Shown one piece after another: positions 1,990-21,020 of a DNA stretch of 64,000 nt. The first letter of the stretch is position 1, and the number at the start of each line of letters is the position of its first letter. The stretch is taken from assembly GCA_964402565.1 (NCBI GenBank), contig CAYOCJ010000002.1:170982-234981 (forward strand). Direction: 5' to 3'. The notes under the pieces are model-generated. The model had not been told where the DNA came from. It worked only from the letters and a program-made list of their open reading frames with translations, and made no database searches. The DNA is from an uncultured Gammaproteobacteria bacterium (GTDB taxonomy: Bacteria; Patescibacteriota; Patescibacteriia; UBA1558; 2-01-FULL-52-15). The position numbers and the translations under genes were made by a program.

Positions 1990-2589
1990 TTACTTTTTTG
2001 CGTCAGCCATCATGCGTCTCCGCATTGCATCGCCCAATAGATCAAAAATACAGCTGATACTGAGGATGGCGATCGTGCCGCAAGCAAGCGTCACTCCAAG
2101 GTTGCTGACACGGGATTCAATTTCCCGCATATTTCTGCCTGCTACGGCGAAGTAATCGGGTTTGCCTGGGACATAGCGGATGACCAGAGCAATGCGCGTT
2201 CCTGCATGTGGCTGCCAGGTCACTCGGTATTCACCAATGCTTCGGGCATGATCAAAAACGCCGACAGGAGGCTTCGGTTCATTGCCATCGATCATTCCTG
2301 TCGATGCTATCGGACTTCCATGCTCGTCAAAGACTGCGATGAACGTGGTAAGGCTTTTTTGGATGTCGAATGTATGATCTGCGGGGACTAGGTCTTTCGG
2401 CTGCAATCCATTCGAAAGCGCTTGTCCAAGGTCTTGTGTTATTTGAATTTGAGGATCATTTAACGACTGGCGGTACTGTTGCTGCGCGACTACATAGATA
2501 AGACTGCTCAAGCCGATAATAGTTATGGCGAGCGGAAGCCAATGACTGAGAATACCTTGCATGTGTTTCATATGCATTGAGTATAGCAA
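1990..2589 (-). CDS. hypothetical membrane-anchored protein (N- and C-terminal TM segments)
   Basis: 199-aa ORF with hydrophobic helices near both ends and no recognisable catalytic motif. Confidence 0.45.
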   Translation of the reverse strand: MLYSMHMKHMQGILSHWLPLAITIIGLSSLIYVVAQQQYRQSLNDPQIQITQDLGQALSNGLQPKDLVPADHTFDIQKSLTTFIAVFDEHGSPIASTGMIDGNEPKPPVGVFDHARSIGEYRVTWQPHAGTRIALVIRYVPGKPDYFAVAGRNMREIESRVSNLGVTLACGTIAILSISCIFDLLGDAMRRRMMADAKK

Positions 2590-2617
2590 AGTGAATTAGA
2601 AACAGATAGCTTTAACT

Positions 2618-2648
2618 AAAAGCGCGCCACAATTGTGGCGCGCTTGAA
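2618..2648 (-). terminator. intrinsic terminator for the 2664..3095 gene
   Basis: Perfect 22-nt palindrome gcgcgccacaattgtggcgcgc. On the minus strand it is followed by a T-rich run (ttttagtt). Confidence 0.6.
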
Positions 2649-2663
2649 GCACGGAACGTGAGA

Positions 2664-4715: not shown

Positions 4716-5960
4716 TTATTTTAACACAGATAGTAATACTTTAAGTGCTGTTTTTTCAGTATCGATACCGGGGTGAACTGCTCGCAGCTCACGCAGCACA
4801 GTATCGATTTTGCCGTCTATGCGAGTCCACGCCGCCGGATCTTTTGGTTTCAATCGCGCTTCAGAAGTATCCCATTCGTATTCTAAATCACTGATGCGAG
4901 CTGTCGCTCCGGATTGGTTTCCTAGATTGAGGAGATCGAGAGTATCCTGTGTAATTGTTGTAAATGAGGAAAGATCACCCAGTGGCGACGATAGCGCAGG
5001 AGTTGAAGTGGCTGTAGCAGCAACAGGCTGTGCAGTCGTTTCATCGCCTTGTAAGTCCGACTGGCGCATATGGTATCCGATAAGCCCCGCGAGCACCAGT
5101 ACCGTAACCACGATCGCGGTTTGCAATAAGCCGCTTCTGCTTTGATCTGCAACGATTTCTTCAGCAACCTCTTCCTTTGTTTCTTTTTCAATACGATCTT
5201 TCTTTGATAGAGAGAGGTAGGCAACTATTCCCAGAATACCCCCGACGAAAATAAAGCTCGTGATAGTTGCGCCAAGACCTAATCCGCCATATTTCGGCGG
5301 CTGAGAAAGGTAATCTCCTATCGATGCCCCGAGCGGTCTGGTCAAAATATAGATCATCCAGAAAGAGAGGACATGGTTCATTTTCAGCTTCCAGCCGATC
5401 GCGAAAGCGGCGATGAGACCGGCGATGATGAAGCCAGTCGTTGCGTAGCCAAGACCAAGCCCTTCAGCCATAAGGTCCCCTGCAGCAGTACCGAGCGCAA
5501 AAGTAAACAGAATGGTGAGCCAGTAAAATGCTTCGCGCCTTGATGTAACAATCGAGTGTATCGAGAGTGTTTTTTCAAAGTAGTACCAAATAAGGAACGT
5601 TGCTGCCAAAAGAATACTGAAAACAATGGTGCTCGTTTCAAGCGGCACGCCGATCTTGTCGGTCAGGTTATCGGTGACCAGCGTTCCGAAGACGCTGATG
5701 AACATGACAGAAAGCCAATACGTGACTGGAATATACCTTTTTGCCTTAAACTGAAACAACAAAGCTAATGCGAGCGCTACCCCGGTAACAATGGATGTAC
5801 CGGTAAGTCCGAAATTTAGATTGACATTTAAGTAATCGGCTGCCGTTTCCCCGACGGTCGTGCACATAACCTTGATGAACCAGAACCAGAGGGTGATCTC
5901 TGGGACTTTGTTGAGCATGTGGCGTAACTTTGTATCGGAAGATTGAACTGGGGAGGACAT
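4716..5960 (-). CDS. polytopic membrane protein, COG4705-like (repeated TxGExxxD motifs)
   Basis: WFWFIKVMCTTVGETAADYL plus later GTAAGDL and GASIGDYL repeats, as in the uncharacterised membrane-anchored protein family. C-terminal soluble domain. The exact start is ambiguous among 5960, 5972 and 5996. Confidence 0.5.
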   Translation of the reverse strand: MSSPVQSSDTKLRHMLNKVPEITLWFWFIKVMCTTVGETAADYLNVNLNFGLTGTSIVTGVALALALLFQFKAKRYIPVTYWLSVMFISVFGTLVTDNLTDKIGVPLETSTIVFSILLAATFLIWYYFEKTLSIHSIVTSRREAFYWLTILFTFALGTAAGDLMAEGLGLGYATTGFIIAGLIAAFAIGWKLKMNHVLSFWMIYILTRPLGASIGDYLSQPPKYGGLGLGATITSFIFVGGILGIVAYLSLSKKDRIEKETKEEVAEEIVADQSRSGLLQTAIVVTVLVLAGLIGYHMRQSDLQGDETTAQPVAATATSTPALSSPLGDLSSFTTITQDTLDLLNLGNQSGATARISDLEYEWDTSEARLKPKDPAAWTRIDGKIDTVLRELRAVHPGIDTEKTALKVLLSVLK

Positions 5961-6030
5961 ATAATCTAGCATAGAACAAAAAAATGATTTGCACAAAGAA
6001 TCATTTTTTCAGTCATCGGCCGAATTATTC

Positions 6031-6049
6031 TGGCGGAGACGGGAGGATT
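6031..6049 (-). repeat. 19-bp direct repeat of the 3' end of tRNA-Ser (att-like remnant)
   Basis: tggcggagacgggaggatt is identical to 10099-10117, the T-arm through CCA of the tRNA-Ser gene, and has the same orientation. Confidence 0.7.
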
Positions 6050-6176
6050 TTCGCCTCGCGGCGTACTCGCCGCTTCGTTGCCAGGGGCAGCGCCTAAAGC
6101 TTCATATCCTTCGCTTCAGCCGGCGCTCTCCGCCCAGGGCGGATCGCTGCTGCCCGTTCGAATCCTTTATCTGATT

Positions 6177-6437
6177 ATTGCTTTCCGTACTCATCTTCGA
6201 TGAGTCCAGAAAACAATGGCGGTCCTTTTTGGACGAAGTTCGAACGTTTTTTAATGAAAATCCCGATGCTGAATTCTGATGCGCGCCGCCTGTGGCGGCG
6301 CGGGGTCAAATTTGCCCATCCAAAACTCACTCTAGCAAAAAGAGATACACAAGGCTAGCGCCCAGCCGTCAGGCCTGACGGCTGGGCGGGAAGGAAAAAA
6401 TGCGCGGCGACAGGGGTTCAAGGGGATGTCGCCGCGC
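6177..6437. repeat. left arm of a 261-bp inverted repeat (IR-L) with three GC-rich hairpins
   Basis: By-eye alignment shows 6177-6437 is the exact reverse complement of 9839-10099. It contains the palindromes cgcgccgcc-tgt-ggcggcgcg, gcccagccgtcagg|cctgacggctgggc and gcgcggcgaca-loop-tgtcgccgcgc. Confidence 0.85.
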
Positions 6438-6471
6438 GTCCAGTACAAGATGATAAAGGTTTCACTATCTG

Positions 6472-7482
6472 TCAACGGTCTGGATAGGGTGCATTCTTTT
6501 GACTTTTCGCTTTCTCAGCAATCCCTGAAAAGAGATGACTGATTTTTGCTGCAGTCAGGATAAAAATGAGTAGATTAATAGCTATGAGTGCTACGCTAAT
6601 TATAGCAAGTGCATCCACAGCTACGGATCTCGATATAATGAGTAGATAATGAACGAGGGGTGCGGTAGGGTCTTCGCGCAGTTCTTCAGAAAATAGACGA
6701 AGTACAAAATTGTATGGGCCATAGTGTATAGCTGCAAGAATGGCGGCTCCAAGTGCTACCCAGAATAAACTTTGCAATGAGATAATTGCTTGGAGACGTG
6801 TATTTTTTGTCGATTTCGGGACATTGACGACTTGTAATTTGAGCTGTGCGATCGTTAGATCAGCGACCATGCCTATGCGTTGCCGTAGACCATGGATAAG
6901 GCCGTATTTTTTTTCTTTTATAACCTGCGATAGGCCTTTAATGATAGTGTATCGATAGCCTTTACCATAGTACTGTGCATAAAAATTAAGACCTGCTTCA
7001 ATACGGAAACCACGTTTGTAATACGGCGGGAGCATCTGCCAAAGTTTTTTAGTAATGGCGCGCTCACCACCAAGGAGTGGCACAAATACCATGATATTGT
7101 GTAAGGCATAGATTTTTCTATTACGCATTGCTATGAACATATCAACGGTACCATCCAGAACCGGCTCTACTAGTGTAGTTACCATTGTGTGTGTGAGCCC
7201 AGATATATCAGCATCAATAAAAAGTATGATATCAGTTCGTGCGAGGCTGACGGCTATGTCCATAGCATGACCCTTGCCTTGATTTGTAGAGAGTCTGATA
7301 TATCGCACGGAATATTTTTGTGTAATTTCCTCAGTTCTATCAGTCGATCCGTCATCAACAACAATAACCTCATAAAAACCTGGGTAGGTCGTCAGCACAC
7401 TAAGAACAGCGCCTATGCGTTGCGCCTCATTGTATGCAGGAACAATGGCGGTTACTTTTTTTCCAGTTTCTTCTCCAACCAT
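6472..7482 (-). CDS. family-2 glycosyltransferase (polyprenyl-phosphate sugar transferase, DPM1/GtrB-like) with a C-terminal TM tail
   Basis: GT-A fold motifs are AIVPAYNEA, VIVVDDGSTD and the DAD triad in FIDADISG. Two to three C-terminal TM helices, as in GtrB/ArnC. Confidence 0.8.
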   Translation of the reverse strand: MVGEETGKKVTAIVPAYNEAQRIGAVLSVLTTYPGFYEVIVVDDGSTDRTEEITQKYSVRYIRLSTNQGKGHAMDIAVSLARTDIILFIDADISGLTHTMVTTLVEPVLDGTVDMFIAMRNRKIYALHNIMVFVPLLGGERAITKKLWQMLPPYYKRGFRIEAGLNFYAQYYGKGYRYTIIKGLSQVIKEKKYGLIHGLRQRIGMVADLTIAQLKLQVVNVPKSTKNTRLQAIISLQSLFWVALGAAILAAIHYGPYNFVLRLFSEELREDPTAPLVHYLLIISRSVAVDALAIISVALIAINLLIFILTAAKISHLFSGIAEKAKSQKNAPYPDR

Positions 7483-8057
7483 AGGGTGACGGATTTAAAT
7501 AAAATAACAATAGCTACAACGACTACTAAGGTATACTCGGTCTTGTGCAGGACAGGAAACAAGTTTTTTGTACTACTCCCTGCGAGCCAGCCGATGGTAA
7601 GCATGACATGCAGCCATATCATCGTGCCTAGTGTGTCAAAAATAACGAAGGTCCAGAAGCCTATTTTCCTGACGGAAAGGTATAGAATGGTCAGAATTCT
7701 GGTACCGTACAGAAATTTGATAAACAATAAGACCAAAAATGGTTTGTGGCCTGTTATCGTCTCAAACCGCTTCAGAAGCGCTTGGTATTTAATTTGTTTT
7801 TCATCCCACGAATGTATGCGCTTAAATAACGTCTGGCCGAATAAAAACCATAGGCTGTCTGAAATCACCGTGCCTGCAAGCGCGAGCCAGAATACTGCGG
7901 AGATGGACCAGATCCCTTGACCTGCGAGAAAAGCGGCTGTGATAATTACAGTCTCACCGAAAAAGAAGGCCCCAATGAAAATAGCCGGCAGCTGGTATGT
8001 GAGTAGCAGTGATGTAATGAGGGGATGTATAGATTTATATATTTGATGATTTAGAAA
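7452..8057 (-). CDS. DedA/VTT-family membrane protein (no canonical start codon; frame continues from the PAP2 gene across a TGA)
   Basis: Conserved DedA core FGETVIITAAFLAGQG plus downstream TM helices. The ORF track calls only 7452..7868 from a GTG. The in-frame region back to the TGA at 8058-8060 is open and encodes the DedA N-terminal helix. Confidence 0.55.
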   Translation of the reverse strand, partial: FLNHQIYKSIHPLITSLLLTYQLPAIFIGAFFFGETVIITAAFLAGQGIWSISAVFWLALAGTVISDSLWFLFGQTLFKRIHSWDEKQIKYQALLKRFETITGHKPFLVLLFIKFLYGTRILTILYLSVRKIGFWTFVIFDTLGTMIWLHVMLTIGWLAGSSTKNLFPVLHKTEYTLVVVVAIVILFKSVTLWLEKKLEKK

Positions 8058-9728
8058 TCATTGCAGCCATAGGATGTACGCTTTACCGTCGGTAAAAAAG
8101 GAATCACCAGATGCATTGATGCCTCGAGTTGGCCGGACTATGTCGAGTTTTGTATGTTCAGAAACCATGTGGGTAGCAATAAGTTCTTGGAAAATTTTTT
8201 CTCGTTCACGGTCAATGTCAGGATCAATCCTGTGTGTCGGTAGGGGAATTTTTGAGCCAATCTCGATGCCATTATCCAAACTGGCTGTCCCAACCCATAA
8301 GGGGCGACCGTCGACAGAATACTGAGTTTTCCAAAAGCGTGCATGGTGTCTCCGTCGTGCGGTTGCATCATCGGTTAGTTGTTTTTCAAACCCCAGGTCA
8401 TTGGCTGTGGTATTGTAAAACGCCGGTGTCATAGGACCAGATGCGTACATGACATTTCTCGCAATTGCCGAAAGCTCGTGTATGACATTACTGAAGTTTA
8501 CGAGATCAGCCAAGTGCCACCCTGCTTGATTAAAGGTGTTGATAATTTGATTTTGTTCACCCAGGATGAGGAAGCTTAAGGGTTCCATGTTTTCTCCAAG
8601 CAGATTTTCACTGTATCTTGGTTCATGTTCAATAAAATCTTGTAGAGTGATAGCTCGAGTCGCAATGTTAGGTGTTATGATTGTTGTGCCATGGGCAGTA
8701 GTATATATACTGCCTAGCGGCACGAAGGTAAGTAATAAAGTTATTACCTTGGATGCTAGAGAAATTTTTTTTCGCGATGTGCTCACGGGCACCTGGAAGT
8801 TAATCTCATATCCAGCAATGGCGATCGTAAGGATTAGCAAACCGAGGTACCAGCCAGCAATAACGTCGCTGGGATAATGAACCCCAAGGTAGATACGACT
8901 GATACCGATGGCTGTGACAAGAAGAAAAAAAGCAGCAATGGTCAGTGCTTTATACCAAACACTACGAACCCGCTTGATAATGAGGTAACTGATAAAACCA
9001 TAGAGACAAATTGCTATGACCGCGTGTCCACTAGGAAAGCTGAATGACGGTGGAAGTGTAATAAGATTTAGGCCAGCGGGTCGGGGACGGTGACCGATCC
9101 ACTTTGTCAACCAGTAGGCACTATATCCTGACCCGACTGATAGTATAAAATAACGAATTACGCTATAGTCTTTATCCATAAGCAAATAAACAAGAGTAAT
9201 TGCAGAAACGAGGAGTACGGTACTGGTATTTGCAAAAGTGGTGATATAGATGAACAAGGACGCATAGCGGGGCGAGATAAAGGCTTGTATGAGGTGAATC
9301 GTTCTTGCATCGGCGAGGTACAAAGGATCCTTGAGTAGAATATCAAAAACTATAATAGTAAATTGAATAAGAAAAAACCCAGCGATAAAAGCACAAATTG
9401 TTGTATACAGTCCTGATGGAAAATTTTTGTCGAGTCTTTTTTTCAAAAAAAAGTACGTACGTGGCCATCGTGATTGAGTTGCTGCTAGGCTTTTTTGCCA
9501 AACACGAGTATGAGCGATACTATGTCCTAGGCTTGAGAGTATTTGGAGAAGTGTTTCTCTCTTTCTGAAAATCCAGACTGAAAATAATCCAATGCATGTA
9601 GACAGGGCGGTTGCGAGAATGAGGACGGCAGCAAGCCCGAGGCCCCAATAACTAAAGTATACAAACAGCTCAAATGATGCATAGATAAATCCAAGAACGG
9701 TCGCAGTGATGAAAATTTTTTTGGCCAT
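8058..9728 (-). CDS. PAP2 lipid phosphatase (BcrC/PgpB-like) with a C-terminal LssY_C-like domain
   Basis: PAP2 motifs are KX6RP (GHRPRPAG), PSGH (FPSGHA) and SRX5HX3D (ISRIYLGVHYPSDV) within 10+ TM helices. The ~230-aa C-terminal soluble extension resembles the LssY C-terminal domain. Confidence 0.8.
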   Translation of the reverse strand: MAKKIFITATVLGFIYASFELFVYFSYWGLGLAAVLILATALSTCIGLFSVWIFRKRETLLQILSSLGHSIAHTRVWQKSLAATQSRWPRTYFFLKKRLDKNFPSGLYTTICAFIAGFFLIQFTIIVFDILLKDPLYLADARTIHLIQAFISPRYASLFIYITTFANTSTVLLVSAITLVYLLMDKDYSVIRYFILSVGSGYSAYWLTKWIGHRPRPAGLNLITLPPSFSFPSGHAVIAICLYGFISYLIIKRVRSVWYKALTIAAFFLLVTAIGISRIYLGVHYPSDVIAGWYLGLLILTIAIAGYEINFQVPVSTSRKKISLASKVITLLLTFVPLGSIYTTAHGTTIITPNIATRAITLQDFIEHEPRYSENLLGENMEPLSFLILGEQNQIINTFNQAGWHLADLVNFSNVIHELSAIARNVMYASGPMTPAFYNTTANDLGFEKQLTDDATARRRHHARFWKTQYSVDGRPLWVGTASLDNGIEIGSKIPLPTHRIDPDIDREREKIFQELIATHMVSEHTKLDIVRPTRGINASGDSFFTDGKAYILWLQ

Positions 9729-9838
9729 AGTGCTATTCTAGCAAAGAAAAGGAGTTATAAATAGCATAGTGTTCATGCAATCGTTGTTAGAATGTCCTAC
9801 ACCAATACCCGTTTCCATAGTATTTTAGAATGCTCAAG

Positions 9839-10099
9839 GCGCGGCGACATCCCCTTGAACCCCTGTCGCCGCGCATTTTTTCCTTCCCGCCCAGCCGTCA
9901 GGCCTGACGGCTGGGCGCTAGCCTTGTGTATCTCTTTTTGCTAGAGTGAGTTTTGGATGGGCAAATTTGACCCCGCGCCGCCACAGGCGGCGCGCATCAG
10001 AATTCAGCATCGGGATTTTCATTAAAAAACGTTCGAACTTCGTCCAAAAAGGACCGCCATTGTTTTCTGGACTCATCGAAGATGAGTACGGAAAGCAAT
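9839..10099. repeat. right arm of the 261-bp inverted repeat (IR-R), abutting the tRNA-Ser 3' end
   Basis: Reverse complement of 6177-6437. Its last base is shared with the first encoded base of the tRNA CCA end. Confidence 0.85.
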
Positions 10100-10189
10100 G
10101 GCGGAGACGGGAGGATTCGAACCTCCGAGACCCTTTGGGGGTCTAACGCTTTTCGAGAGCGCCCCGTTCAACCACTCTGGCACGTCTCC
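10099..10189 (-). tRNA. tRNA-Ser (anticodon CGA), CCA encoded
   Basis: Cloverleaf with acceptor GGAGACG/CGTCTCC. Anticodon stem GCGCU/AGCGU with loop CUCGAAA (U33, CGA, A37). Long variable arm GACCC/GGGUC and T-arm GGAGG-TTCGAAT-CCTCC. Confidence 0.9.
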
Positions 10190-10226
10190 ATCCGCGCTTA
10201 GTATACTTATTTCTTGTATTTTTTCA

Positions 10227-11069
10227 ATGCAGAGGCTCTTTATGGTATACTATGCATATCACACTATGACCATTACGTATCCCAAGGGTGACAGTGACTC
10301 ATCAGCCAACCTGAATCCGCCCGCAAGCGCATCGCATCTGACCGCCGTAGCAATTGCGGTAAGCATCGTCTTCCTCGTTGTCGCTGCAGGCTTGTGGTAT
10401 GGCTTTTCGCAATCAAAAAAAGCTGTCGAATCCGTTCCTGCTGCGGTCATTCCGCTGCCTGCATCGCCTGCAGTGGAAGGAGCGCGCGTGTATGAGGCGA
10501 TCGATGGATTACAGCAATGTCAAAAGAATACTCCTGATCTGAACACGGCTGACGCACAGAAGAAGAGGCAGAATTGCTATTATGCGGTCATGACAATTTT
10601 TGCAACATCATCTATTTGCAATATCATTGCATTGGACGGCAGCAGCTCAGATCTTTGCAAGCAAGCAGAAGCCCGTTTCATCAAGGATTATCCGAACGGC
10701 ATACCGAAAACGGATATACCGCTAGTCGGTGCAAAGACAAATGCAAATTCAAATCCCTCCGTTCCTGGCTCCGGCGGTTCGGCAGGGTTAGGCACGAAAG
10801 GTAGCACTGGATCCACCGGCGGTAGCGGAGGGATAAACTCGAATACGAACACGCAATCTAATACAAATACCGGCTCGCAGAACACGAATACCAACTCAAC
10901 AAGCAATGCGAATACTTCCGGCAATACTAATACTGCGGGCAATTCCAATAGTTCGACCAGCCAAAACAGCAATAACAACAGCAATCAGAACGAAACATCA
11001 AATGATCTGCCCCCATGCCTGAATGACGGTGGTGAGCCGACCTTGTTGCAGCATACCAACTGCCAATAG
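10227..11069 (+). CDS. membrane-anchored protein with an Asn/Thr/Ser/Gly-rich low-complexity C-terminal tail
   Basis: Single TM (LTAVAIAVSIVFLVVAAGLWYGF), then NTNTQSNTNTGSQNTNTNST... Start taken at an ATG downstream of the tRNA (10227 or 10266). The ORF-track start at 10098 overlaps the tRNA and is rejected. Confidence 0.5.
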   Translation: MQRLFMVYYAYHTMTITYPKGDSDSSANLNPPASASHLTAVAIAVSIVFLVVAAGLWYGFSQSKKAVESVPAAVIPLPASPAVEGARVYEAIDGLQQCQKNTPDLNTADAQKKRQNCYYAVMTIFATSSICNIIALDGSSSDLCKQAEARFIKDYPNGIPKTDIPLVGAKTNANSNPSVPGSGGSAGLGTKGSTGSTGGSGGINSNTNTQSNTNTGSQNTNTNSTSNANTSGNTNTAGNSNSSTSQNSNNNSNQNETSNDLPPCLNDGGEPTLLQHTNCQ

Positions 11070-11919: not shown

Positions 11920-13650
11920 ATGAGACTACCGATCACCTACGAAGACCTAAAAACCTTACTGTTCAATCAAAAGTTGATCAGCCAATCCGATTGGACAAGC
12001 GCTGAAAAGAATGCGAACCGCAGACGCCGTGGCATTGAAGAGGTTTTGATAGAGAGAGGCTTTTTCACTGAAGCGTACCTGTTTGAAATGATAGCTGCTG
12101 CACTGAAGATACCCTATATCAACCTGCGCACGGTGAAAGTCGAGGATGATGCGTTCAAAATGCTGCCAGAAGACGTTGCGCAAACGACGAAATGCATCGC
12201 ATTCGAGAAAAATACGAAGAAAGGAACGATAAAAGTCGCCACGTTAAATCCGCTCAGCACTGAAAGTCTGACCGCGGCACAGCAGGCGATAGGGCAAACC
12301 TGTGAATGGTTCCTCATGAATGACAAGAGTTACCGGTACGCTCTTCGTTTTTATAATACTGACCTGAAAGAAGATCTGCTGAAAATCATCAATCAGCATA
12401 TACAGGGCGTGCAAGGCAAGGCTATCGGCTTGGATTTGCCTGTGGTCAAGATATTCGATACCTTGCTCGAATATGCATTGCTTGAGCAGGCGTCTGATAT
12501 CCACATTGAACCGTTGTCAGATGCAGTACTTGTCCGTTTCCGTATCGACGGCGAACTCGAGGATAAGATCGAATTGCCGATCTCACTCAAGGATGCAATG
12601 ATTGCACGCATCAAGATCCTGTCTGACCTAAAGATCGATGAACATCGGGTCCCGCAGGACGGTCGTTTAGGTTTCAAGATCGATGATCTGGAAGAATCAG
12701 CCCGTGTTTCCATCATACCGACGATGTATGGAGAAAAAGCCGTGATGCGGCTGCTTTCAGACGAGATGCAGAATTTCAGTTTGCAGGATATTGGTCTGTC
12801 AAAAAAGAATCATGATCTGGTTCTGCGCAGCATACAGAAGCCGTTCGGCATGATACTCGTCGTCGGCCCTACTGGATCTGGCAAAACAACTACGTTGTAT
12901 GCCATTTTGAATATTTTGAATACGGAAGATGTAAATATCTCGACCATCGAAGATCCTATCGAATATGGCATCCGGCGCGTGAATCAAACGCAGGTGAATA
13001 CGACAGCGGGATATACATTTGCCAGTGGTTTGCGCTCATTGCTGCGGCAGGATCCTGATATCATCATGATCGGTGAGATCCGCGACGGTGAGACCGCACA
13101 GATAGCCGTTCGCGCTGCATTGACCGGGCATCTGGTCCTTTCTACATTGCACACAAATAATGCCGCAGGAGCCTTGCCTCGCTTGCTTGATATGGGCGTC
13201 GAGCCTTTCCTGACCGCATCGACGGTCAATATTGTCATCGCACAGCGGCTAGTCCGCAGGATTTGCATAGAATGCATTGCGAGTTATAAACTATCTGGTG
13301 TAGAGGTAAAGGCATTGTCAAAAGAGTATGATTTGCGGGCAATAGTTATACGCATGCAGAAGTTGGGCGTCATTGATAAAAAAATCGAGAACTTTTCAAG
13401 CCTGCCCTTCTATAAGGGCAAAGGGTGCAATCGATGCCACGGCACTGGCTATACGGGGCGTGTTTCCGTGACGGAAGCTTTGGTTAATAGCCATGCGATA
13501 CAGCAGGCGATCATAAAGAATATGTCGTCGGAAGACTTTGAAGCGATCGCATTGCAAGAAGGCATGATACCGATTTTCGATGATGCGATGCAGAAAGCAT
13601 TGCTTGGCGTCACAACCCTAGAAGAAGTATTGCGAATTTCAAGAGAATAA
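11920..13650 (+). CDS. pilB: type IV pilus assembly ATPase (GspE/PilB family)
   Basis: N-terminal GSPII_E N domains. Walker A is VVGPTGSGKTTTLY. Asp/His boxes include GEIRDGETAQIAVRAALTGHLVLSTLHTNNAAG. C-terminal tetracysteine CIECIASY...CNRCHGTGY. Confidence 0.92.
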   Translation: MRLPITYEDLKTLLFNQKLISQSDWTSAEKNANRRRRGIEEVLIERGFFTEAYLFEMIAAALKIPYINLRTVKVEDDAFKMLPEDVAQTTKCIAFEKNTKKGTIKVATLNPLSTESLTAAQQAIGQTCEWFLMNDKSYRYALRFYNTDLKEDLLKIINQHIQGVQGKAIGLDLPVVKIFDTLLEYALLEQASDIHIEPLSDAVLVRFRIDGELEDKIELPISLKDAMIARIKILSDLKIDEHRVPQDGRLGFKIDDLEESARVSIIPTMYGEKAVMRLLSDEMQNFSLQDIGLSKKNHDLVLRSIQKPFGMILVVGPTGSGKTTTLYAILNILNTEDVNISTIEDPIEYGIRRVNQTQVNTTAGYTFASGLRSLLRQDPDIIMIGEIRDGETAQIAVRAALTGHLVLSTLHTNNAAGALPRLLDMGVEPFLTASTVNIVIAQRLVRRICIECIASYKLSGVEVKALSKEYDLRAIVIRMQKLGVIDKKIENFSSLPFYKGKGCNRCHGTGYTGRVSVTEALVNSHAIQQAIIKNMSSEDFEAIALQEGMIPIFDDAMQKALLGVTTLEEVLRISRE

Positions 13651-13651
13651 T

Positions 13652-14848
13652 ATGGCAGCACCAGCAGCAGCCACCATGCAGGCACCGATGCAGCCCCTGC
13701 GCAAGCAGGAGGGCGCTCTTTCGTCATTGCCGACGCCGACTCAGAAAGAACAGGCGGTACAGGTTGTCAAACAGCAGCGAGAGAAAAAGGAAAAGAAACC
13801 GCTCATATCCTTGGGCGTTTCTCAGAACGAGAAGATTTTTTTTATCGACAACCTGGCGACCATGCTGACCGCCGGTTTGTCGCTATCATTGGGGCTTCGT
13901 ACTTTGTCGACCGAGACCAAAAATAAGACCATGAAGCGGGCATTGCGATCGATCGAACATGTGATCGATAACGGGCGCCAGCTCTCTGACGGTTTGGCGC
14001 AACACCCGGAAGTGTTCCCGCCATTATTTGTCGCAGTTATTCGCGTCGGCGAGGCCGGCGGAACGCTTTCAGATGTATTGATTCGTCTTGCCGCCATTGC
14101 AAAAAAGGAAAAAGCGCTGCGCAGCAAGGTTATCAGCGCTCTGATCTATCCGGCTATCGTTGTCCTTGCAATGATCGCAATTGTATTCATTCTGATGCTG
14201 TATGTATTCCCGCAGCTCATCGCTATCTTCGAAGATGTGGGAGCAGAATTGCCGATCCAGACCAGGATACTTATCGCCACCGTGCATTTTTTCCAAAATT
14301 ACGGAGTCTATATCGGCCTTGGTGCGATTCTATTGTTCATTTTGTTCATCTTCGGCCGCCGTTTCAAAAAAATTCACCGTTTCTATCACTTAATGCTCCT
14401 GGGCATGCCGTTTTTCGGCAAGATCGCGAAAGAATTGGCGCTGACCAGGATCCTGGGCAATATTAAAATGCTTATGGTATCAGGCGTGCCTATCGTCCAA
14501 GCATTCACGATCGGCTCAAAGACTGCCGGCAACCTTGTCTATGAAGAAGAATTGGTGCGGATCTCAAGAAAGCTGGAATTGGGCAATTCACTGCATACCA
14601 TTCTGAGCCAGCGGCCCGCGCTCTTTCCTTCGCTTGCCGTAACCATGGCTAAGGTCGGCGAAGAGACCGGAAAGCTGGATGAGATCATGGGCAAGCTTCA
14701 GGCATTCTATGAAAATCGCGTTGATACGGTATTCTCAAACCTGTCGACTATCATTGAGCCGTTCCTACTGCTTTCGATAGGAGTCATGGTCGGCTTTATA
14801 GCCGTATCCGTGATCATGCCAATTTATAATTTGGCGCAATCCTTCTAG
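13652..14848 (+). CDS. pilC: type IV pilus / T2SS platform protein (GspF/PilC family)
   Basis: Two T2SS_F domains, each followed by TM helices. It lies immediately downstream of pilB. Confidence 0.9.
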   Translation: MAAPAAATMQAPMQPLRKQEGALSSLPTPTQKEQAVQVVKQQREKKEKKPLISLGVSQNEKIFFIDNLATMLTAGLSLSLGLRTLSTETKNKTMKRALRSIEHVIDNGRQLSDGLAQHPEVFPPLFVAVIRVGEAGGTLSDVLIRLAAIAKKEKALRSKVISALIYPAIVVLAMIAIVFILMLYVFPQLIAIFEDVGAELPIQTRILIATVHFFQNYGVYIGLGAILLFILFIFGRRFKKIHRFYHLMLLGMPFFGKIAKELALTRILGNIKMLMVSGVPIVQAFTIGSKTAGNLVYEEELVRISRKLELGNSLHTILSQRPALFPSLAVTMAKVGEETGKLDEIMGKLQAFYENRVDTVFSNLSTIIEPFLLLSIGVMVGFIAVSVIMPIYNLAQSF

Positions 14849-16276
14849 TTATAATTCTCTCCAGGTAATGATATCGTAGGCGGTTTCAGTCGAGGGGAAA
14901 TAAGGTGGTGAGAAGTAGAGCAAGTTCGCGTCATAGGTAATGACGCGATTTTGATATCCATTCCCATCGCTGTATCGCGTGCCATAGACACCGTTCGAAG
15001 CTATCAGGCCAAAGAGAGTCAGTGATTGTCTGGTTCCATACGGCGAGCAATATGCAGCAGGGTAGTAGTAGCGTCCGACGCGACCGTTCTTTGCCACTAA
15101 AGCAGCGTCGATCCGCAAATTATCGGCGCTGACCATGCCGGTATTAATATTGTTTTGCGCGATGATCCCGAGGATATCCCTTCCGTCATAATTCGTATAA
15201 CTCAGGTCATCATTGATAGTGACGTTCGCATAGGTCGTCGGGTTTTCCGGGAATCGCGCTGCACCGATCGTCAGCCGGGCAGTATTTATTTTTCCGTCGA
15301 CCCATAAATCATCTTCCACGAATAAGGCTCCATTGCCTGGGAGGTTGATCGTGTTTTGGAACACTTGCGTCGAGATGCTCCAGGTTCCCCATCCGCTCTG
15401 ATTCTGCGTATTTGAACAATTCACATTAGGCGGCGCAACGAGAGCCGTGACTTTATAGACATCGATGGTGTCATTCGTCTTGAGCACTAAGTGGTATCCC
15501 AATGCTCCCGAATTCGCCATGTATGTTCCCCCAGACTGAGCTTTGGATTTTATCGTTGCGAGGTCTTCAGTGATTCCAGCGAAATCGAATGCAGGTACCG
15601 GGAATTGCCTGCCGCCGGCAAATACATCAGGCCTGCTGGGGGCGCTTGCTGGTGGCAATGGATCCGTTGGGCTCACGTGTGTATGCACGCCGAATTCATT
15701 TGCGCCTGCGTGGCTGGGGTCGTCGTATTGTGTCACTGAGCTGGTTACTAAACCATTCGCGAGACCATCAAACCGAATGCCTCCATTGGCATGGATCTTA
15801 CCATTCACGGTGACATTCTCAGCGAAATAGAGGTTCGTGTTGCCGATCACCGCATAGGAAGCGAGCGATGGCTGACCGAGCACGACTTCTACCGTACGGC
15901 TTGCACGGGGATCTGCATCGACCTTGCCAGTTGATTTGATCGTTGCCGTATTAAAGCCATCAGCCGGAGGAGTGATCTCAAGGGAGAATTCTCCAATACG
16001 GTTGCCGCCGACATCATCGTATTCATGGATATAGGGGCCTGGGTTTCCGGTGCCGTCCTGGAAATCATCCGGCGAATGCGCCAATCGCCAGCGGTAATAC
16101 TCGATGCCTGACTCGGCGACATTAATTGCCTGCTCGCGGTAGTATTCATGTTTTGAAAATCGTATATTCGAACTTGCCCATGCGATGAGGCCGCCGATAA
16201 AGATAAAAGCGATCGCAGCAAATACTAAGACTTGAAAAAGGATAGCGCCCTCTTGGTTGATGTGTTTGCTTTTCAT
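14849..16276 (-). CDS. PilX/ComGG-like pilus-associated protein with an N-terminal TM anchor
   Basis: N-terminal hydrophobic helix followed by AINVAESGIEYYRWRL, resembling the PilX_N signature. It is the last gene of the pilin operon. Confidence 0.55.
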   Translation of the reverse strand: MKSKHINQEGAILFQVLVFAAIAFIFIGGLIAWASSNIRFSKHEYYREQAINVAESGIEYYRWRLAHSPDDFQDGTGNPGPYIHEYDDVGGNRIGEFSLEITPPADGFNTATIKSTGKVDADPRASRTVEVVLGQPSLASYAVIGNTNLYFAENVTVNGKIHANGGIRFDGLANGLVTSSVTQYDDPSHAGANEFGVHTHVSPTDPLPPASAPSRPDVFAGGRQFPVPAFDFAGITEDLATIKSKAQSGGTYMANSGALGYHLVLKTNDTIDVYKVTALVAPPNVNCSNTQNQSGWGTWSISTQVFQNTINLPGNGALFVEDDLWVDGKINTARLTIGAARFPENPTTYANVTINDDLSYTNYDGRDILGIIAQNNINTGMVSADNLRIDAALVAKNGRVGRYYYPAAYCSPYGTRQSLTLFGLIASNGVYGTRYSDGNGYQNRVITYDANLLYFSPPYFPSTETAYDIITWREL

Positions 16277-16872
16277 TTGTTTTTCAGTGATCGTATATCT
16301 GCCCGGGTTTCCAGCGTACGCGGCATCTGGTCAGCAACCCGCGGGTCGACGGAAATATGCAATTCAACCAGACGAACATCTGCGGGTGACACCGGCTGTG
16401 TCAATGGCGGCGTAGAGGTCGAACCGTCAAAGCTACTGCCATAGTAAATAAAGTAAGGCGGCGCAGTGATGACATTGTCGACCATCGAGCTGACGCTTTC
16501 ATTTGCCGAATCATAGGACAGCGGTTGTCCGGTCGGCACGATCAGGCCTCGTTTGAGTGATCCGTTCTCCACAAAGTAGCGAATGCGCTCGACAATGCCA
16601 TCACCGCTGCGGTCCGCGTAGAAAGAAACAACACTGTCAGTACTGCTGGCCACCGGGAAGCTGCCGTCATTCGGGATCTGCGCAGCCCTGATCTCTGAAG
16701 TGAAATTGCGCAGCACCAAAAGCGACTGCTGGTCTAATGTGCTCCGTGCTTTCGAAATTTGGTTGTCGCGGAGGATCTTTATTTGCAGGACAGAAATGGC
16801 AGTAATGATCAGGCTAAAGATGCCAACCGATATTATGACTTCAAGGATAGTAAAGCCGCGATGCCGTTGCAT
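16273..16872 (-). CDS. type IV pilin / pseudopilin
   Basis: Class III signal MQRHRG|FTILEVIISVGIFSLIITAISV with Glu at +5. Start chosen at the Met just before the motif (cat at 16870-16872). The upstream giant pilin ends in TAATG overlap. Confidence 0.85.
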   Translation of the reverse strand: MQRHRGFTILEVIISVGIFSLIITAISVLQIKILRDNQISKARSTLDQQSLLVLRNFTSEIRAAQIPNDGSFPVASSTDSVVSFYADRSGDGIVERIRYFVENGSLKRGLIVPTGQPLSYDSANESVSSMVDNVITAPPYFIYYGSSFDGSTSTPPLTQPVSPADVRLVELHISVDPRVADQMPRTLETRADIRSLKNK

Positions 16873-19619
16873 TACTGTGGCGTCAGTTTGATCGTAACCG
16901 TCTGCCATCCGGAAGCGATGGTTTTTGGAGTTACCGAGGTGATATAACCTGATTTTGATATGGTGATCGTATTCGCCCCCGTGACAACGTCGTTGAAGTA
17001 CACCTGGCCGGACGGCGTACATGCATTTGCGAAACTGATCGCAATATCCGAGACATTGGGCGTATAGGCGGTATTTGCTGTTTGCAGATCAATGCGATAG
17101 CGGATATAGCGATCGCCATTATGGATAGCATTGAGCGTATGATCGGTCGGTTTATAGTAGGTATTCGTCGTGCCATCAGGACCTCGGTAGCTCCAGGTTG
17201 TGGTGGCTGTATTGGTCTGGCTGCTCGCAATACGGATGCGGACAGGATCAACGCCTGTTTGCGAAGGCTGTCCTTCAGGCCGCATCACTAAATGATAGAA
17301 GTTCGTTGGCGCGGTATTATCAAAAATGGAAGAGGTGAGAGTGCCAGAAGCCGCATAGGTTGCTCCGTTTTGCTGAAGCTTGAGTTCACCGACAGGATTC
17401 GATGTGCCTATAGTACTGGAGCTGTCGTATCGATTTGCCGTACTCCAATTCGTTTGCCCTCCTCCTCCTGACCAATCTGTTTGCTGCCAATTCCCTTCGC
17501 CGGTTTGCAATGTTTTCGAATAACTCGGTCCGTCAATTTTTACATCGGCACCCTGGATCGGCTGCTGGGTCACTGCATCGACTGCAAGGACCAGAAGAGC
17601 ATTCGTCGTTTTGGGCTCGGCCACCATCGAGAGCACCTCGGTCGAATCAGGAGAAAGGGACATCGGCAATTGCGGAAGGCTGCCAGCCAGATAGTATTGC
17701 GGGTCTGTCACGGTCGCATTGTATGTATCCCATTCCATAGACGGCAGATCGAGTTCTCCGTTATTGTCAGTGCTGAGATCGGAGCTGTACTTTGGCACAT
17801 CAGGTGATTGGCCTATCAGTTTTGCACCAGTGAGATTAAAGTCGATATTGGGACGGGGACTGCACACTTGGTCGACTGTTCTCACATTCAATGTGCTTAA
17901 CGCATCGATTGAGAAACTGACCTGCGTGACCGCATCTGCAAGGACCGTTGCATGCGGCTTCAGCGGGCTCGGATTATTTGGATCTCCGACTGCATAGGTT
18001 TTATCAGTTGAGAATCCAGGTTTTGTTACGGTGATTTGATACGACTGCTCAGCAGGCGGCGCATCAATGACAACGAGCTGCCCCTGGTTATTGGTCGTAT
18101 CTGTAAAATCGAGGGCAGGGTCGGTGGTTGTATTGACAATAGAGACAGAAGCGTCAGGCACTGGCGCTCCCACAGCGTCAAAGACCTGGATCAATAAGGC
18201 GCCATTCCCGCCGCTTGTTTCCAGGCGCTTCGGCGCCACAGTCGTGGTCCCTGAGTAGCTCGTTGCTATTTCACAGGTCACACAGGTGACCTGTACCTCA
18301 GCTAATTTATAATCGCCAGGAGACGTATCGCCGATGGTAGGGTTTCCGGTGATGAGTAAATTAAATATGCCGGTGCCATAGGTAATACTCGATTTATTGT
18401 CGATCGTGATTTTGTATCCAGTAGCTTCGACGACCTGCGCTCCGTTGCCAATGGCTATCAAACCGTCATTGGCATAGAGAATGCCTCGAAAACCGGTGGA
18501 GTTATTGATCTGTATCGCGGGGTTGTTTGAACTTTTTGATCCATTCGTAGTAATGAATACAGCATAACTGCCGGCAAACGGATTACAGGAATTTTTTTGT
18601 TTATTATATCCCTCTGATCCGCAGGCAGCAGTATTATTGTTGATCGAGATAGAACCGTCTGCAATGATCACGCCGCTGGCGCTCGAGTAGGTTGGACTCA
18701 GGTAAATGCTTCCGCTATTCGAAAGGCTGATGGTGCCGGTCACCCATAACGTTCCGGTTACAACGAGTTCGCCGCTGCCGGTTATCGTAATATTGCCATT
18801 GATCTTTTTTGGTCCGATGGTGACCTTTTGCCCGTTGCCGATAGTAACCGAGCCCGTTGTTCCTACTGCTGCCGCTTCGTTCTTCCATTCGGTGATCTTC
18901 GCACTTGAAATAGGCAAATTTTGTGAAGGCGTGTCTGAGGTCCCGGGATGTTGCGCCCCGCTGACGGTTGAATTTTGTATCGTTTGATAGTACGCGTCGC
19001 CGGTTATCGTAGCATTTGTAATGGCATGCGCATGTGCATCACCGGCAATTTTTATAAAGTCGAGCGTATTGCCGCCCGCAACCCACATGTCGTCAGTTAC
19101 ATTCGCTTTATTGTCACCAGTTGCGGTACCGTTCGAGAATACTTTGCCGAAGATCGTCGCCGTGTTTGACATGATGAGGCCGCCGTCGCCGACCTGAGCG
19201 CTGAACGGGAATCGTACATCGTCAAGGTTATTGCCCAGCACGCCATCAAATGGATCATCTATGTTCCTGACGATCGTCCGCACCTCATACGTTTTGCCGT
19301 TACGAACTATTTCTTTCGTCGGTTCGAGAAAACCGTTGGGGACGCTGTCTTTCAGCCCCAGTGACGTAAATGGAATTGCATGGATGCTTTCGAGCTCTTC
19401 CTGCAATATGGTATTAGCACCGGTGCGTTCAGATGAAACTTTGACCAGGCGCAGAACATTGGTGTAGACCATGAAGAGCCCCACGCTAACCAGCGCAAAG
19501 ACCGCGACTCCTACAATAGTTTCAACGAGGGTGAAGCCTGTGTGCACTGGGCTCAAAAATGACGGCGAGGCGCCCCCTCCATGCGAAACTTTTTGTTTTA
19601 CTGACTTAAAAAAAGCCAT
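16872..19619 (-). CDS. giant pilin-like protein (915 aa) with a prepilin N-terminus; putative tip or adhesin subunit
   Basis: ...SPVHTG|FTLVETIVGVAVFALVSV prepilin motif after a 28-aa leader. The rest is Thr/Ser/Asn/Gly-rich beta-repeat sequence. Confidence 0.75.
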   Translation of the reverse strand: MAFFKSVKQKVSHGGGASPSFLSPVHTGFTLVETIVGVAVFALVSVGLFMVYTNVLRLVKVSSERTGANTILQEELESIHAIPFTSLGLKDSVPNGFLEPTKEIVRNGKTYEVRTIVRNIDDPFDGVLGNNLDDVRFPFSAQVGDGGLIMSNTATIFGKVFSNGTATGDNKANVTDDMWVAGGNTLDFIKIAGDAHAHAITNATITGDAYYQTIQNSTVSGAQHPGTSDTPSQNLPISSAKITEWKNEAAAVGTTGSVTIGNGQKVTIGPKKINGNITITGSGELVVTGTLWVTGTISLSNSGSIYLSPTYSSASGVIIADGSISINNNTAACGSEGYNKQKNSCNPFAGSYAVFITTNGSKSSNNPAIQINNSTGFRGILYANDGLIAIGNGAQVVEATGYKITIDNKSSITYGTGIFNLLITGNPTIGDTSPGDYKLAEVQVTCVTCEIATSYSGTTTVAPKRLETSGGNGALLIQVFDAVGAPVPDASVSIVNTTTDPALDFTDTTNNQGQLVVIDAPPAEQSYQITVTKPGFSTDKTYAVGDPNNPSPLKPHATVLADAVTQVSFSIDALSTLNVRTVDQVCSPRPNIDFNLTGAKLIGQSPDVPKYSSDLSTDNNGELDLPSMEWDTYNATVTDPQYYLAGSLPQLPMSLSPDSTEVLSMVAEPKTTNALLVLAVDAVTQQPIQGADVKIDGPSYSKTLQTGEGNWQQTDWSGGGGQTNWSTANRYDSSSTIGTSNPVGELKLQQNGATYAASGTLTSSIFDNTAPTNFYHLVMRPEGQPSQTGVDPVRIRIASSQTNTATTTWSYRGPDGTTNTYYKPTDHTLNAIHNGDRYIRYRIDLQTANTAYTPNVSDIAISFANACTPSGQVYFNDVVTGANTITISKSGYITSVTPKTIASGWQTVTIKLTPQ

Positions 19620-19656
19620 AGTGTGATGGCCCTAGTATACCAAGTTTTTGATGGAT

Positions 19657-21018: not shown

Positions 21019-21020
21019 AA

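Follow-up and report, generated by a model that had tools for sequence, protein, structure and literature searches.

Positions 6472 to 9728 of the 64-kb stretch of contig CAYOCJ010000002.1 analyzed here (the window) are filled by three co-oriented open reading frames (ORFs) on the minus strand (Table 1). In the order in which they are read, they encode a membrane protein with a PAP2 phosphatase domain and a C-terminal LssY_C domain, a DedA family protein, and a family 2 glycosyltransferase (GT2). This gene content agrees with the original prediction, and Pfam searches reassigned none of the genes to an unrelated family. The first protein carries PAP2 (PF01569; E value of 2.9e-19, residues 193 to 305) and, in its C-terminal part, LssY_C (PF14067; E value of 8.6e-42, residues 370 to 549), and the third carries Glycos_transf_2 (PF00535; E value of 1.4e-26, residues 12 to 131). 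The DedA ORF as listed (7452 to 7868) matches VTT_dom (PF09335; E value of 4e-9) at 37.4 bits, above the cut-off (33.9 bits). The DedA gene extends beyond this ORF, whose start is the GTG at 7868: the frame stays open as far as the stop codon of the PAP2-LssY_C gene, and the 54 codons upstream of 7868 are conserved DedA sequence.

The packing of the three genes is operon-like. The TGA stop codon of the PAP2-LssY_C gene (8058 to 8060) is separated from codon 1 of the DedA gene by 27 nt, the end of the DedA gene overlaps the start of the GT2 gene by 31 nt, and just 3' of the GT2 gene a GC hairpin followed by six T residues (6437 to 6395, minus strand) forms an intrinsic-terminator-like end. Neither a consensus promoter nor a Shine-Dalgarno sequence was detected in the unique 5' region by promoter scan or in the sequence; read-through from the tRNA promoter upstream, or a leaderless start, is possible. 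As a separate matter, genome-wide recoding of TGA as a sense codon was considered and ruled out: other long genes end in TGA, and the long ORFs are long under translation table 11, which likewise counts against recoding.

TABLE 1 Features of the tRNA-linked segment in the window and of comparable loci (L handles) in related genomes and metagenomes
Feature	Position	Strand	Details
PAP2 + LssY_C membrane protein	8058-9728	minus	556 aa; Pfam, motifs, hydropathy, homologs
DedA/VTT protein	7452-8030	minus	192 codons; codon 1 is ATA (8028-8030); homolog alignment
GT2 glycosyltransferase	6472-7482	minus	336 aa; Pfam, homologs, AlphaFold2 model, Foldseek, hydropathy, loci
Unique 5' region of operon	9729-9838	minus	110 nt
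tRNA-Ser(CGA), intact	10099-10189	minus	ARAGORN; Rfam tRNA, 48.7 bits; 3' end abuts right arm
Right arm of perfect 261-nt inverted repeat	9839-10099		Repeat search
Left arm of 261-nt inverted repeat	6177-6437		Outer 46 nt (6177-6222) are hairpin H1
GC-rich C element	6050-6176	minus	127 nt; GC content of 0.62; no Rfam match
B, 19-nt direct copy of tRNA-Ser(CGA) 3' end	6031-6049	minus	AATCCTCCCGTCTCCGCCA; DNA search
C-like element, window	6031-6176	minus	Downstream of tRNA-Ser
C-like element, L125	7805-7958		Downstream of tRNA-Ser
C-like element, L123	2642-2785		Downstream of tRNA-Ser
C-like element, L121	~2515-2655		Downstream of tRNA-Ser
tRNA and copy of its 3' end, L004	7880-7951, 9747-9761		
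tRNA and copy of its 3' end, L121	598-686, 2639-2655		
tRNA and copy of its 3' end, L113	1446-1519, 1587-1604		
tRNA and copy of its 3' end, L126	8109-8181, 8215-8230		
tRNA upstream of PAP2-LssY_C homolog, L002	7764-7914		
tRNA upstream of PAP2-LssY_C homolog, L004	7796-7951		
tRNA upstream of PAP2-LssY_C homolog, L006	7058-7132		
tRNA upstream of PAP2-LssY_C homolog, L129	415-487		

In the PAP2-LssY_C protein, the three PAP2 motifs are intact (K209-x6-RP, P232-SGH, and S277-R-x5-H-x3-D) and are nearly invariant across the alignment of PAP2-LssY_C homologs. Hydropathy indicates an order of two N-terminal transmembrane segments, the PAP2 core, another transmembrane segment, and the LssY_C domain. 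Counting the hydrophobic segments after the last PAP2 motif would place the LssY_C domain outside the cytoplasm, where the PAP2 active site would also lie. A model of this domain (residues 330 to 556, window 8061 to 8741; pLDDT of 87) had no significant fold match in the PDB when searched with Foldseek (best E value of 0.075), and a literature search on LssY and PF14067 found nothing relevant. The invariant residues of the domain include RRHHARFW (459 to 466; motif form RxHHxRxW), a TASLD-type S/D pair, a D-x-E-R motif, and a C-terminal GDxFFTDG, a pattern that suggests a catalytic or phosphate-binding site. The closest homologous loci (L002/3, L004/5, L006, and L129) encode proteins of 41 to 55% identity, and a co-oriented tRNA gene always lies 50 to 200 nt upstream of the close homologs. 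By tblastn, the protein has weak, PAP2-only matches among phages, and its matches among plasmids are distant fusion proteins.

The DedA protein keeps every family-invariant residue over its 192 codons and is 59 to 63% identical to the products of 192-aa DedA genes that precede the same GT2 family elsewhere. Two signatures are invariant in the DedA alignment: FFFGE (22 to 26), which holds the conserved acidic residue of the first membrane segment, and K105-FLYGT-R111, in which two basic residues stand six residues apart ([KR]FxxGxR), the first of them being K and not R. Such acidic and basic residues have been linked to function in published work on YqjA and UptA, and DedA subfamilies differ in function (PMC9881974). 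The window protein does not belong to the UptA equivalog, as it scores 20.9 bits with NF052605, whose cut-off is 300.

The GT2 belongs to a well-conserved family of about 330 aa (46 to 60% full-length identity among the best 120 homologs), and its motifs DDGSTD (43 to 48) and DAD (90 to 92) are both invariant in 25 homologs. In an AlphaFold2 model (pLDDT of 84), the GT-A domain is followed by a long juxtamembrane helix and by membrane helices at the C terminus (helices at 195 to 216, 225 to 254, and 289 to 329), and hydropathy peaks at about 234 to 252 and 277 to 322. Foldseek aligns the protein over its whole length, membrane helices included, with ArnC, GtrB, and DPMS (E value of ~1e-11, TM-score of 0.43 to 0.51), and the best PHROG is "GtrB-like O-antigen conversion" (E value of 2.5e-15). 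The earlier assignment to a GtrB/DPM1 type thus holds for the architecture (GT-A fold, DxD motif, and membrane helices), although the curated sequence families are not reached. GtrB-like is therefore used here for an architectural resemblance, not for demonstrated family membership, and the acceptor that it implies is a presumed one. Scanning genome contigs with the GT2 alignment returned mostly unrelated GT2s that share the generic pattern V[VI]DDGS.D; the best match (44%) came from a metagenome-assembled genome of Saccharibacteria, and the scan yielded no synteny statistics.

Two DedA partnerships, each conserved independently of the other, meet in the window. A large share of the best 120 PAP2-LssY_C homologs are single proteins of ~700 aa that carry PF09335 and in which DedA, PAP2, and LssY_C are fused in the order VTT-PAP2-LssY_C. 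The window PAP2-LssY_C protein aligns with these fusions at E values of 1e-74 to 1e-85 (33 to 38% identity, 84 to 100% coverage), and plasmid copies are named "bifunctional DedA family/phosphatase PAP2 family protein" by NCBI. The second partnership links DedA with the GT2. In every retrieved context (L007 and L009 to L013) the GT2 gene is preceded by a 192-aa DedA gene with a 31-nt overlap, and the same gene length and overlap recur in the metagenome loci. Altogether, the GT2 gene lies directly downstream of the DedA gene in 30 of the 32 loci with enough sequence, which were drawn from 31 metagenome loci found in a search with the DedA alignment and from the contexts just named. Because DedA-PAP2-LssY_C fusions and a conserved DedA/GT2 gene order both exist, the idea that the three window genes act in one pathway gains support. 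The DedA-GT2 pairs are often wedged between tRNA genes (L012, L094, L096, L100, L106, L117, and L118), with tRNA-Leu(taa) before and tRNA-Gly(ccc) after the pair or with tRNA-Thr(cgt) directly before it. The adjacency of both PAP2-LssY_C and DedA-GT2 to tRNA genes could reflect cotranscription with the tRNAs or insertion targeted to them. Sources of the homologs include Microgenomates, Parcubacteria, Moranbacteria, and Magasanikbacteria; together with the gene content, these names suggest that the host is probably a bacterium of Patescibacteria type.

The trio had been described as a repeat-bounded unit, and a perfect inverted repeat does enclose it. The two arms are 100% complementary over 261 nt, and the outer hairpin of each begins with the tRNA's own CCGCCA. 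On the right, a quasi-palindromic hairpin (H2) is formed by the outer 46 nt (10054 to 10099), and a T-run comes after it on the minus strand, a terminator-like arrangement for the adjoining tRNA-Ser(CGA) gene, which has a promoter-like site at 10227 to 10200 (promoter scan); the interior of this arm contains three further GC-rich hairpins. The left arm would serve as the terminator of the operon and the right arm as that of the tRNA gene. Since the outer hairpins are near-palindromes, their two copies can also be aligned in direct register, with 80% identity. Inversion of the cargo, with promoter and terminators unchanged, would be expected from recombination between the 261-nt arms, and rare recombination between the outer hairpins would delete the cargo, leaving a tRNA-hairpin-C arrangement such as that of L125, described below.

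Beyond the left arm lies the GC-rich C element, which on the minus strand begins with AGGATTCGAA, the reverse complement of the tRNA T-loop and T-stem. It is followed by B, the far boundary of a 4.05-kb variable segment. The 19-nt sequence of B occurs at 6031 to 6049 and at 10099 to 10117, that is, two matches against zero expected by chance. Neither the repeat arms nor the C element gave an Rfam match, even with a permissive threshold. Folding of 6020 to 6180 is mildly better than that of shuffled sequences (z of -2.7 on the minus strand and -1.0 on the plus strand), and the consensus fold of four C sequences is weak (-5.7 kcal/mol) and pairs only the two ends of the element. The conserved C element could be a recombination arm or an uncharacterized RNA. 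A second, degenerate tRNA at 6031 to 6176 was also considered and rejected, as neither ARAGORN nor Rfam calls one there and the tRNA similarity is limited to the last ~19 to 23 nt.

The interior of the segment has a GC content of 0.425, compared with a mean of 0.484 (standard deviation of 0.018), the lowest of all 3.4-kb windows in the 64 kb. At third codon positions (GC3), the GT2 (0.35) and PAP2-LssY_C (0.40) genes are below the range of other genes (0.46 to 0.61), and the DedA gene (0.52) is not atypical. A foreign origin, or horizontal acquisition, of the segment is plausible from this composition together with the perfect inverted repeats and the tRNA-end copy. The cargo itself was also recovered independently: the Logan contig L001 (3,461 nt) is 100% identical to 6408 to 9868 and ends 30 nt inside each arm.

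The contigs also bear on the possibility that the assembly of this metagenome-assembled genome produced the repeat-bounded cassette artificially, which we consider very improbable. Such an artefact would fit arms that are 100% identical over 261 nt, short-read contigs (L001, L127, and L128, from SRR12313479 and SRR12313480) that break exactly at the arms, and a k-mer assembly that cannot fix the orientation of the cassette. However, both cargo ends join the inner end of the repeat and the outer flanks differ, which requires two inverted copies in every linear arrangement, and the junctions are seen in Logan assemblies of both runs. The breaks at the arms therefore support a true two-copy repeat, and the assembly is compatible with either orientation of the cargo. 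On the far side of the tRNA-Ser gene, and starting inside it, an ORF on the opposite strand (10098 to 11069) encodes a Ser/Asn/Thr-rich, low-complexity product with a membrane segment, which is probably a secreted or surface protein; Logan gene calls start later (275 to 322 aa).

Related genomes show the same kind of site with other contents or with none. The left neighbor of the segment is a DUF347 gene (window 4716 to 5996) for a four-repeat membrane protein, whose relatives are 81 to 87% identical and lie in different surroundings. In a search for empty sites by way of these relatives, only L125 shared the tRNA-side sequence. It consists of tRNA-Ser(GGA), a hairpin, a C element, and 19 nt copied from the 3' end of that tRNA, without cargo. 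The hairpin is 87% identical to the 46-nt hairpin of the window, and the stretch from the hairpin to the tRNA-end copy is 79% identical over 210 nt. The tRNA-end copy differs from that of the window exactly where the two tRNAs differ. The L125 arrangement sits at a different tRNA, tRNA-Ser(GGA), and has a different far flank.

A second comparison comes from another lineage than that of the window. In L121, tRNA-Ser(CGA) and a 17-nt repeat of its end enclose 1.95 kb with two secreted hypothetical ORFs, and in the related L123 (96% nucleotide identity in the tRNA and 93% in DedA) the tRNA, a hairpin, a C-like element, and a degenerate copy are present without the L121 insert. In L004, a lone PAP2-LssY_C homolog (1.8 kb) lies between tRNA-His and a 15- to 16-nt copy of its 3' end. 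The C-like element ends in a direct copy of the adjoining tRNA's own 3' end, which changes from genome to genome. More generally, exact copies of 15 to 18 nt of a tRNA 3' end are found in related genomes from 34 nt to 2 kb downstream of that tRNA, and the stretches between have or lack genes and contain no integrase. The space between tRNA and copy is thus a recurrent variable spot with changing cargo, which favors acquisition by site-specific or repeat-mediated events. Separately, in L130 to L132 (5086 to 6410 in L130) a short PAP2 gene (172 aa) stands directly before a second DUF347 gene, beside a two-component system, and a link between PAP2 and DUF347 is possible.

We read the trio as an operon that services the polyprenyl-phosphate carrier (undecaprenyl phosphate, C55-P or UndP) and that arrived as horizontally acquired cargo at a tRNA-linked variable spot, and we give this reading a probability of about 0.55. 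Acting from an active site on the outer face, the PAP2 domain would convert released undecaprenyl pyrophosphate (C55-PP or UndPP) to C55-P. DedA would return C55-P to the cytoplasmic face, where the GT2, anchored by its C-terminal helices like GtrB, ArnC, and DPMS, would load a sugar from a nucleotide-sugar onto it. The cassette does not encode the outer-side transferase that would use the lipid-linked sugar, or any flippase for that sugar. For the three proteins, the domains, catalytic motifs, packing, fusions, and conserved gene order were observed directly, whereas what they act on, how they lie in the membrane, and which way flipping runs are inferred. The original prediction of a single lipid-carrier module thus gains from the fusions and from the gene order, whereas its polyprenyl-P and polyprenyl-PP substrates are still presumptive.

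Pathway links between DedA and PAP2 and between DedA and a GtrB-like enzyme are already published. Roney and Rudner found that dedA adjoins or fuses with pap2, with about 1.3% of dedA genes fused, and read this as dephosphorylation of UndPP outside followed by flipping of UndP; they also reported that UptA is coregulated with the GtrB-like YkcC, a GtrA flippase, and a GT-C in Bacillus subtilis (bioRxiv 10.1101/2022.02.03.479048). The logic proposed for the window is the same: DedA adjoins a PAP2 phosphatase, and C55-PP would be converted to C55-P before flipping. It differs from the DedA-PAP2 fusions in having two genes in the opposite order, PAP2-LssY_C first, with one in-frame TGA between them. 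Furthermore, its DedA is of another subfamily, and LssY_C, which is constant in this branch, is not discussed by those authors. The YclJ regulon of B. subtilis (yngABC and ykcBC) likewise combines a DedA with a membrane GT2 proposed to load UndP. In contrast to that regulon, the link in the window consists of two genes that overlap by 31 nt, a unit kept in nearly all of the loci compared (30/32), no GtrA, UDP-sugar pyrophosphorylase, or GT-C gene stands beside the pair, and the GT2 is of a separate family that reaches no curated equivalog. In Pseudomonas aeruginosa, lipid A modification by ArnC/ArnT depends on DedA flippases (PA4029; PMC12893004). The likeness is that a DedA supports a pathway begun by a C55-P GT2, and ArnC is among the best full-length fold matches of the window GT2; however, the window has no Arn genes, the GT2 is far from the ArnC cut-off (23 against 529 bits), and the host, probably of Patescibacteria type, would be without lipid A.

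Several observations, set out in this and the following paragraphs, weigh against our reading of the trio. The GT2, DedA, and PAP2 proteins all fall far below every curated equivalog cut-off in NCBIfam, where the models covered were those for ArnC, PpgS, AglJ, UptA, SepP, PgpB, and undecaprenyl-diphosphatase. The GT2 scores in bits, each with its cut-off, are 23/529 for ArnC (PRK10714), 47/370 for PpgS, 61/325 for AglJ, and 31/375 for DPhHxTase, and those of the PAP2 protein are 35/250 for SepP, 31/261 for PgpB, and 24/229 for PRK11837. By Foldseek, the best fold match of the GT2 catalytic domain is the soluble GpgS, which ties with the membrane enzymes in E value (~1e-11) and has TM-scores of up to 0.62 over the catalytic domain alone, and the sequence matches of the GT2 to solved enzymes in the PDB are confined to residues ~5 to 141, the donor-binding half. 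Of the window ORFs that were scanned, none was found to encode a GtrA-type flippase or a GT-C; these scans left out two ORFs of RpoB/RpoC size.

The same results would suit a glycolipid or phospholipid module in place of a polyprenyl-phosphate one. The GT2 would then act on a membrane glycerolipid or a small phosphorylated acceptor, with chemistry like that of GpgS, DedA would scramble a phospholipid or glycolipid in the manner of PetA, and the PAP2 protein would be a phosphatase of phosphatidylglycerol phosphate, phosphatidic acid, or lipid-A-type substrates. Glucosyl-3-phosphoglycerate synthases rank first for the GT2 catalytic domain both in NCBIfam and by fold, the PAP2 protein also matches PgpB, and the scanned ORFs include no GT-C to consume a lipid-linked sugar. 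DedA members with a phospholipid function exist (PetA; PMC10193950), and DedA subfamilies differ in what they do (PMC9881974). We nevertheless consider such a module unlikely: the GpgS matches cover the soluble domain only, whereas the alignments with ArnC, GtrB, and DPMS span the entire protein, the GtrB-like PHROG ranks best, and the recurrent DedA-PAP2 fusion has been tied experimentally and comparatively to UndP recycling (10.1101/2022.02.03.479048).

The trio as a unit is unique so far. The prospect that it would prove syntenic elsewhere failed in both directions: a PAP2-LssY_C gene is present in none of the 25 DedA loci that have at least 1.7 kb of upstream DNA, and the four closest independent PAP2-LssY_C loci have no DedA or GT2 of the window families. 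As the trio is seen nowhere else, selection for the three genes together is conjectural. The window DedA is, moreover, only 26% identical to the DedA domain of the fusions, which indicates that the two partnerships use different DedA subfamilies.

The DedA gene also lacks an ordinary start. Its frame is the same as that of the PAP2-LssY_C gene, an ATA stands where the homologs have ATG, and there is no ATG, GTG, or TTG between the upstream in-frame TGA, 27 nt before codon 1, and codon 55. Among 27 distinct homologs, the window gene is the only one without a canonical start, the other 26 all having ATG or GTG at that place or a few codons upstream. Because L001 was assembled independently from the same run and is identical there, the ATA is not one assembler's consensus error. 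A start-less DedA may be poorly expressed or inactive, and the gene may have been disabled recently. Alternatively, the protein may be made by weak AUA initiation, by re-initiation after termination at the TGA, or by UGA read-through as a PAP2-LssY_C-DedA protein. If AUA re-initiation or UGA read-through does occur, it would tie the dose of DedA to that of PAP2-LssY_C, and the coupled DedA would amount to a split, permuted version of the known DedA-PAP2 fusion.

A trio found nowhere else, whose DedA gene is the sole homolog without an ATG or GTG start, could also be a by-product of rearrangement. In that case, PAP2-LssY_C would have landed directly before an older DedA-GT2 pair, the insertion would have removed the DedA promoter and start codon, and DedA would now be decaying, perhaps along with the translationally coupled GT2. 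The host-like GC3 of DedA, set beside those of PAP2-LssY_C and GT2, would fit this history, as would the fact that PAP2-LssY_C and DedA-GT2 units usually occur alone and adjoining tRNA genes. However, the DedA frame is intact over 192 codons with all family-invariant residues kept, the overlap with GT2 is preserved, and near-cognate or re-initiation starts 27 nt after a stop codon are possible. Independent DedA-PAP2-LssY_C fusions show, furthermore, that the combination has been selected elsewhere. We therefore regard a by-product of rearrangement as quite unlikely.

The remaining points concern mobility. The segment has no integrase, no second copy, and no viral association, and tRNA-end repeats also exist without cargo, so that the repeat is not specific to this cassette. 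No recombinase or integrase was found in 6031 to 10117 or among the scanned ORFs of the window, and no phage gene was identified among those ORFs by Pfam. On viral contigs, neither the DedA nor the PAP2-LssY_C family has a relative. Two close relatives of the GT2 are found on viral-class contigs (L133, 5001 to 5657; L134, 4989 to 5657), consisting of the catalytic domain alone (about 220 aa, 45 to 50% identical) without a DedA neighbor; one of these contigs is 350 kb long. Each cargo protein forms a singleton cluster with its nearest relatives only 53 to 63% identical, and nothing in the clusters or identities shows a recent spread. Composition and the tRNA-linked spot suggest that the cassette may have been mobile, its present activity being unproven. 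The unit had been called transferable; a history of transfer is plausible, given the low GC content and the tRNA-linked variable spot, whereas the missing recombinase, the singleton clusters, and the lack of viral relatives of DedA and PAP2-LssY_C speak against current mobility.

The comparison with prophage-borne gtrABC cassettes, also part of the original prediction, did not hold. These serotype-conversion cassettes of Shigella and Salmonella prophages have a GtrB-type membrane GT2, a tRNA gene, and a tRNA-end repeat. The window resembles them in having a GT2 of GtrB-like architecture near a tRNA gene with a tRNA-end repeat, but among its scanned ORFs it lacks GtrA, GtrC/GT-C, integrase, and phage genes, it has a phosphatase instead, and its DedA and PAP2-LssY_C proteins are without viral relatives. 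A different likeness is to the cis-mobilizable elements (CIMEs) of streptococci, which are islands at tRNA genes that have att repeats as boundaries but no integrase. The window cargo likewise lies between a tRNA and its 3'-end copy, with atypical composition and no recombinase inside. In contrast to CIMEs, the tRNA-end copy and its GC-rich neighbor also occur cargo-free in relatives, and the cargo is further enclosed by perfect 261-nt inverted repeats.

The window trio (4.05 kb), L004 (1.8 kb), L121 (1.95 kb), and the empty L125 and L123 together form a pattern in which, in these bacteria of small genome and probably of Patescibacteria type, the stretch from tRNA to copy might serve repeatedly as a landing pad. 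A recombinase from another part of the genome would exchange envelope genes at this site, and these would behave as cis-mobilizable mini-islands without an integrase. The C element, whose ends mirror the tRNA T-arm, would serve as a recombination arm, and in the window the cargo could be inverted through the 261-nt inverted repeats and lost through the 46-nt hairpins. We put this idea forward tentatively and hold it to be doubtful.

The rest of the window is ordinary chromosome, with genes for GuaA, PilB/PilC, Wzx/Wzy-like proteins, RecA, FtsK, UvrB, and PolA. A type IV pilus set at 11920 to 22454 (PilB, PilC, a pilin-like N_methyl protein, and a 915-aa CarboxypepD_reg protein) adjoins a Wzy_C O-antigen-ligase-like gene and a Wzx-type flippase. 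This region could be a pilin or surface glycosylation locus that also depends on the carrier.

As the general idea of DedA acting with PAP2 phosphatases and GtrB-like enzymes is already published, what the present locus adds to it is incremental. Beyond the known picture are the overlapping DedA-GT2 pair, the uncharacterized LssY_C domain, and the start-less, in-frame DedA, together with a less expected part, a tRNA-linked spot for cargo that has no integrase but does have a conserved C element. The DedA-GT2 pair and the body of PAP2-LssY_C proteins would add to work on the handling of undecaprenyl phosphate by DedA, and in the overlapping pair DedA stands in the place that GtrA has in classical three-component systems. 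If our reading of the trio is correct, it would provide an uncultivated bacterium of small genome with a compact set of genes for recycling the carrier and starting the modification of surface glycans.

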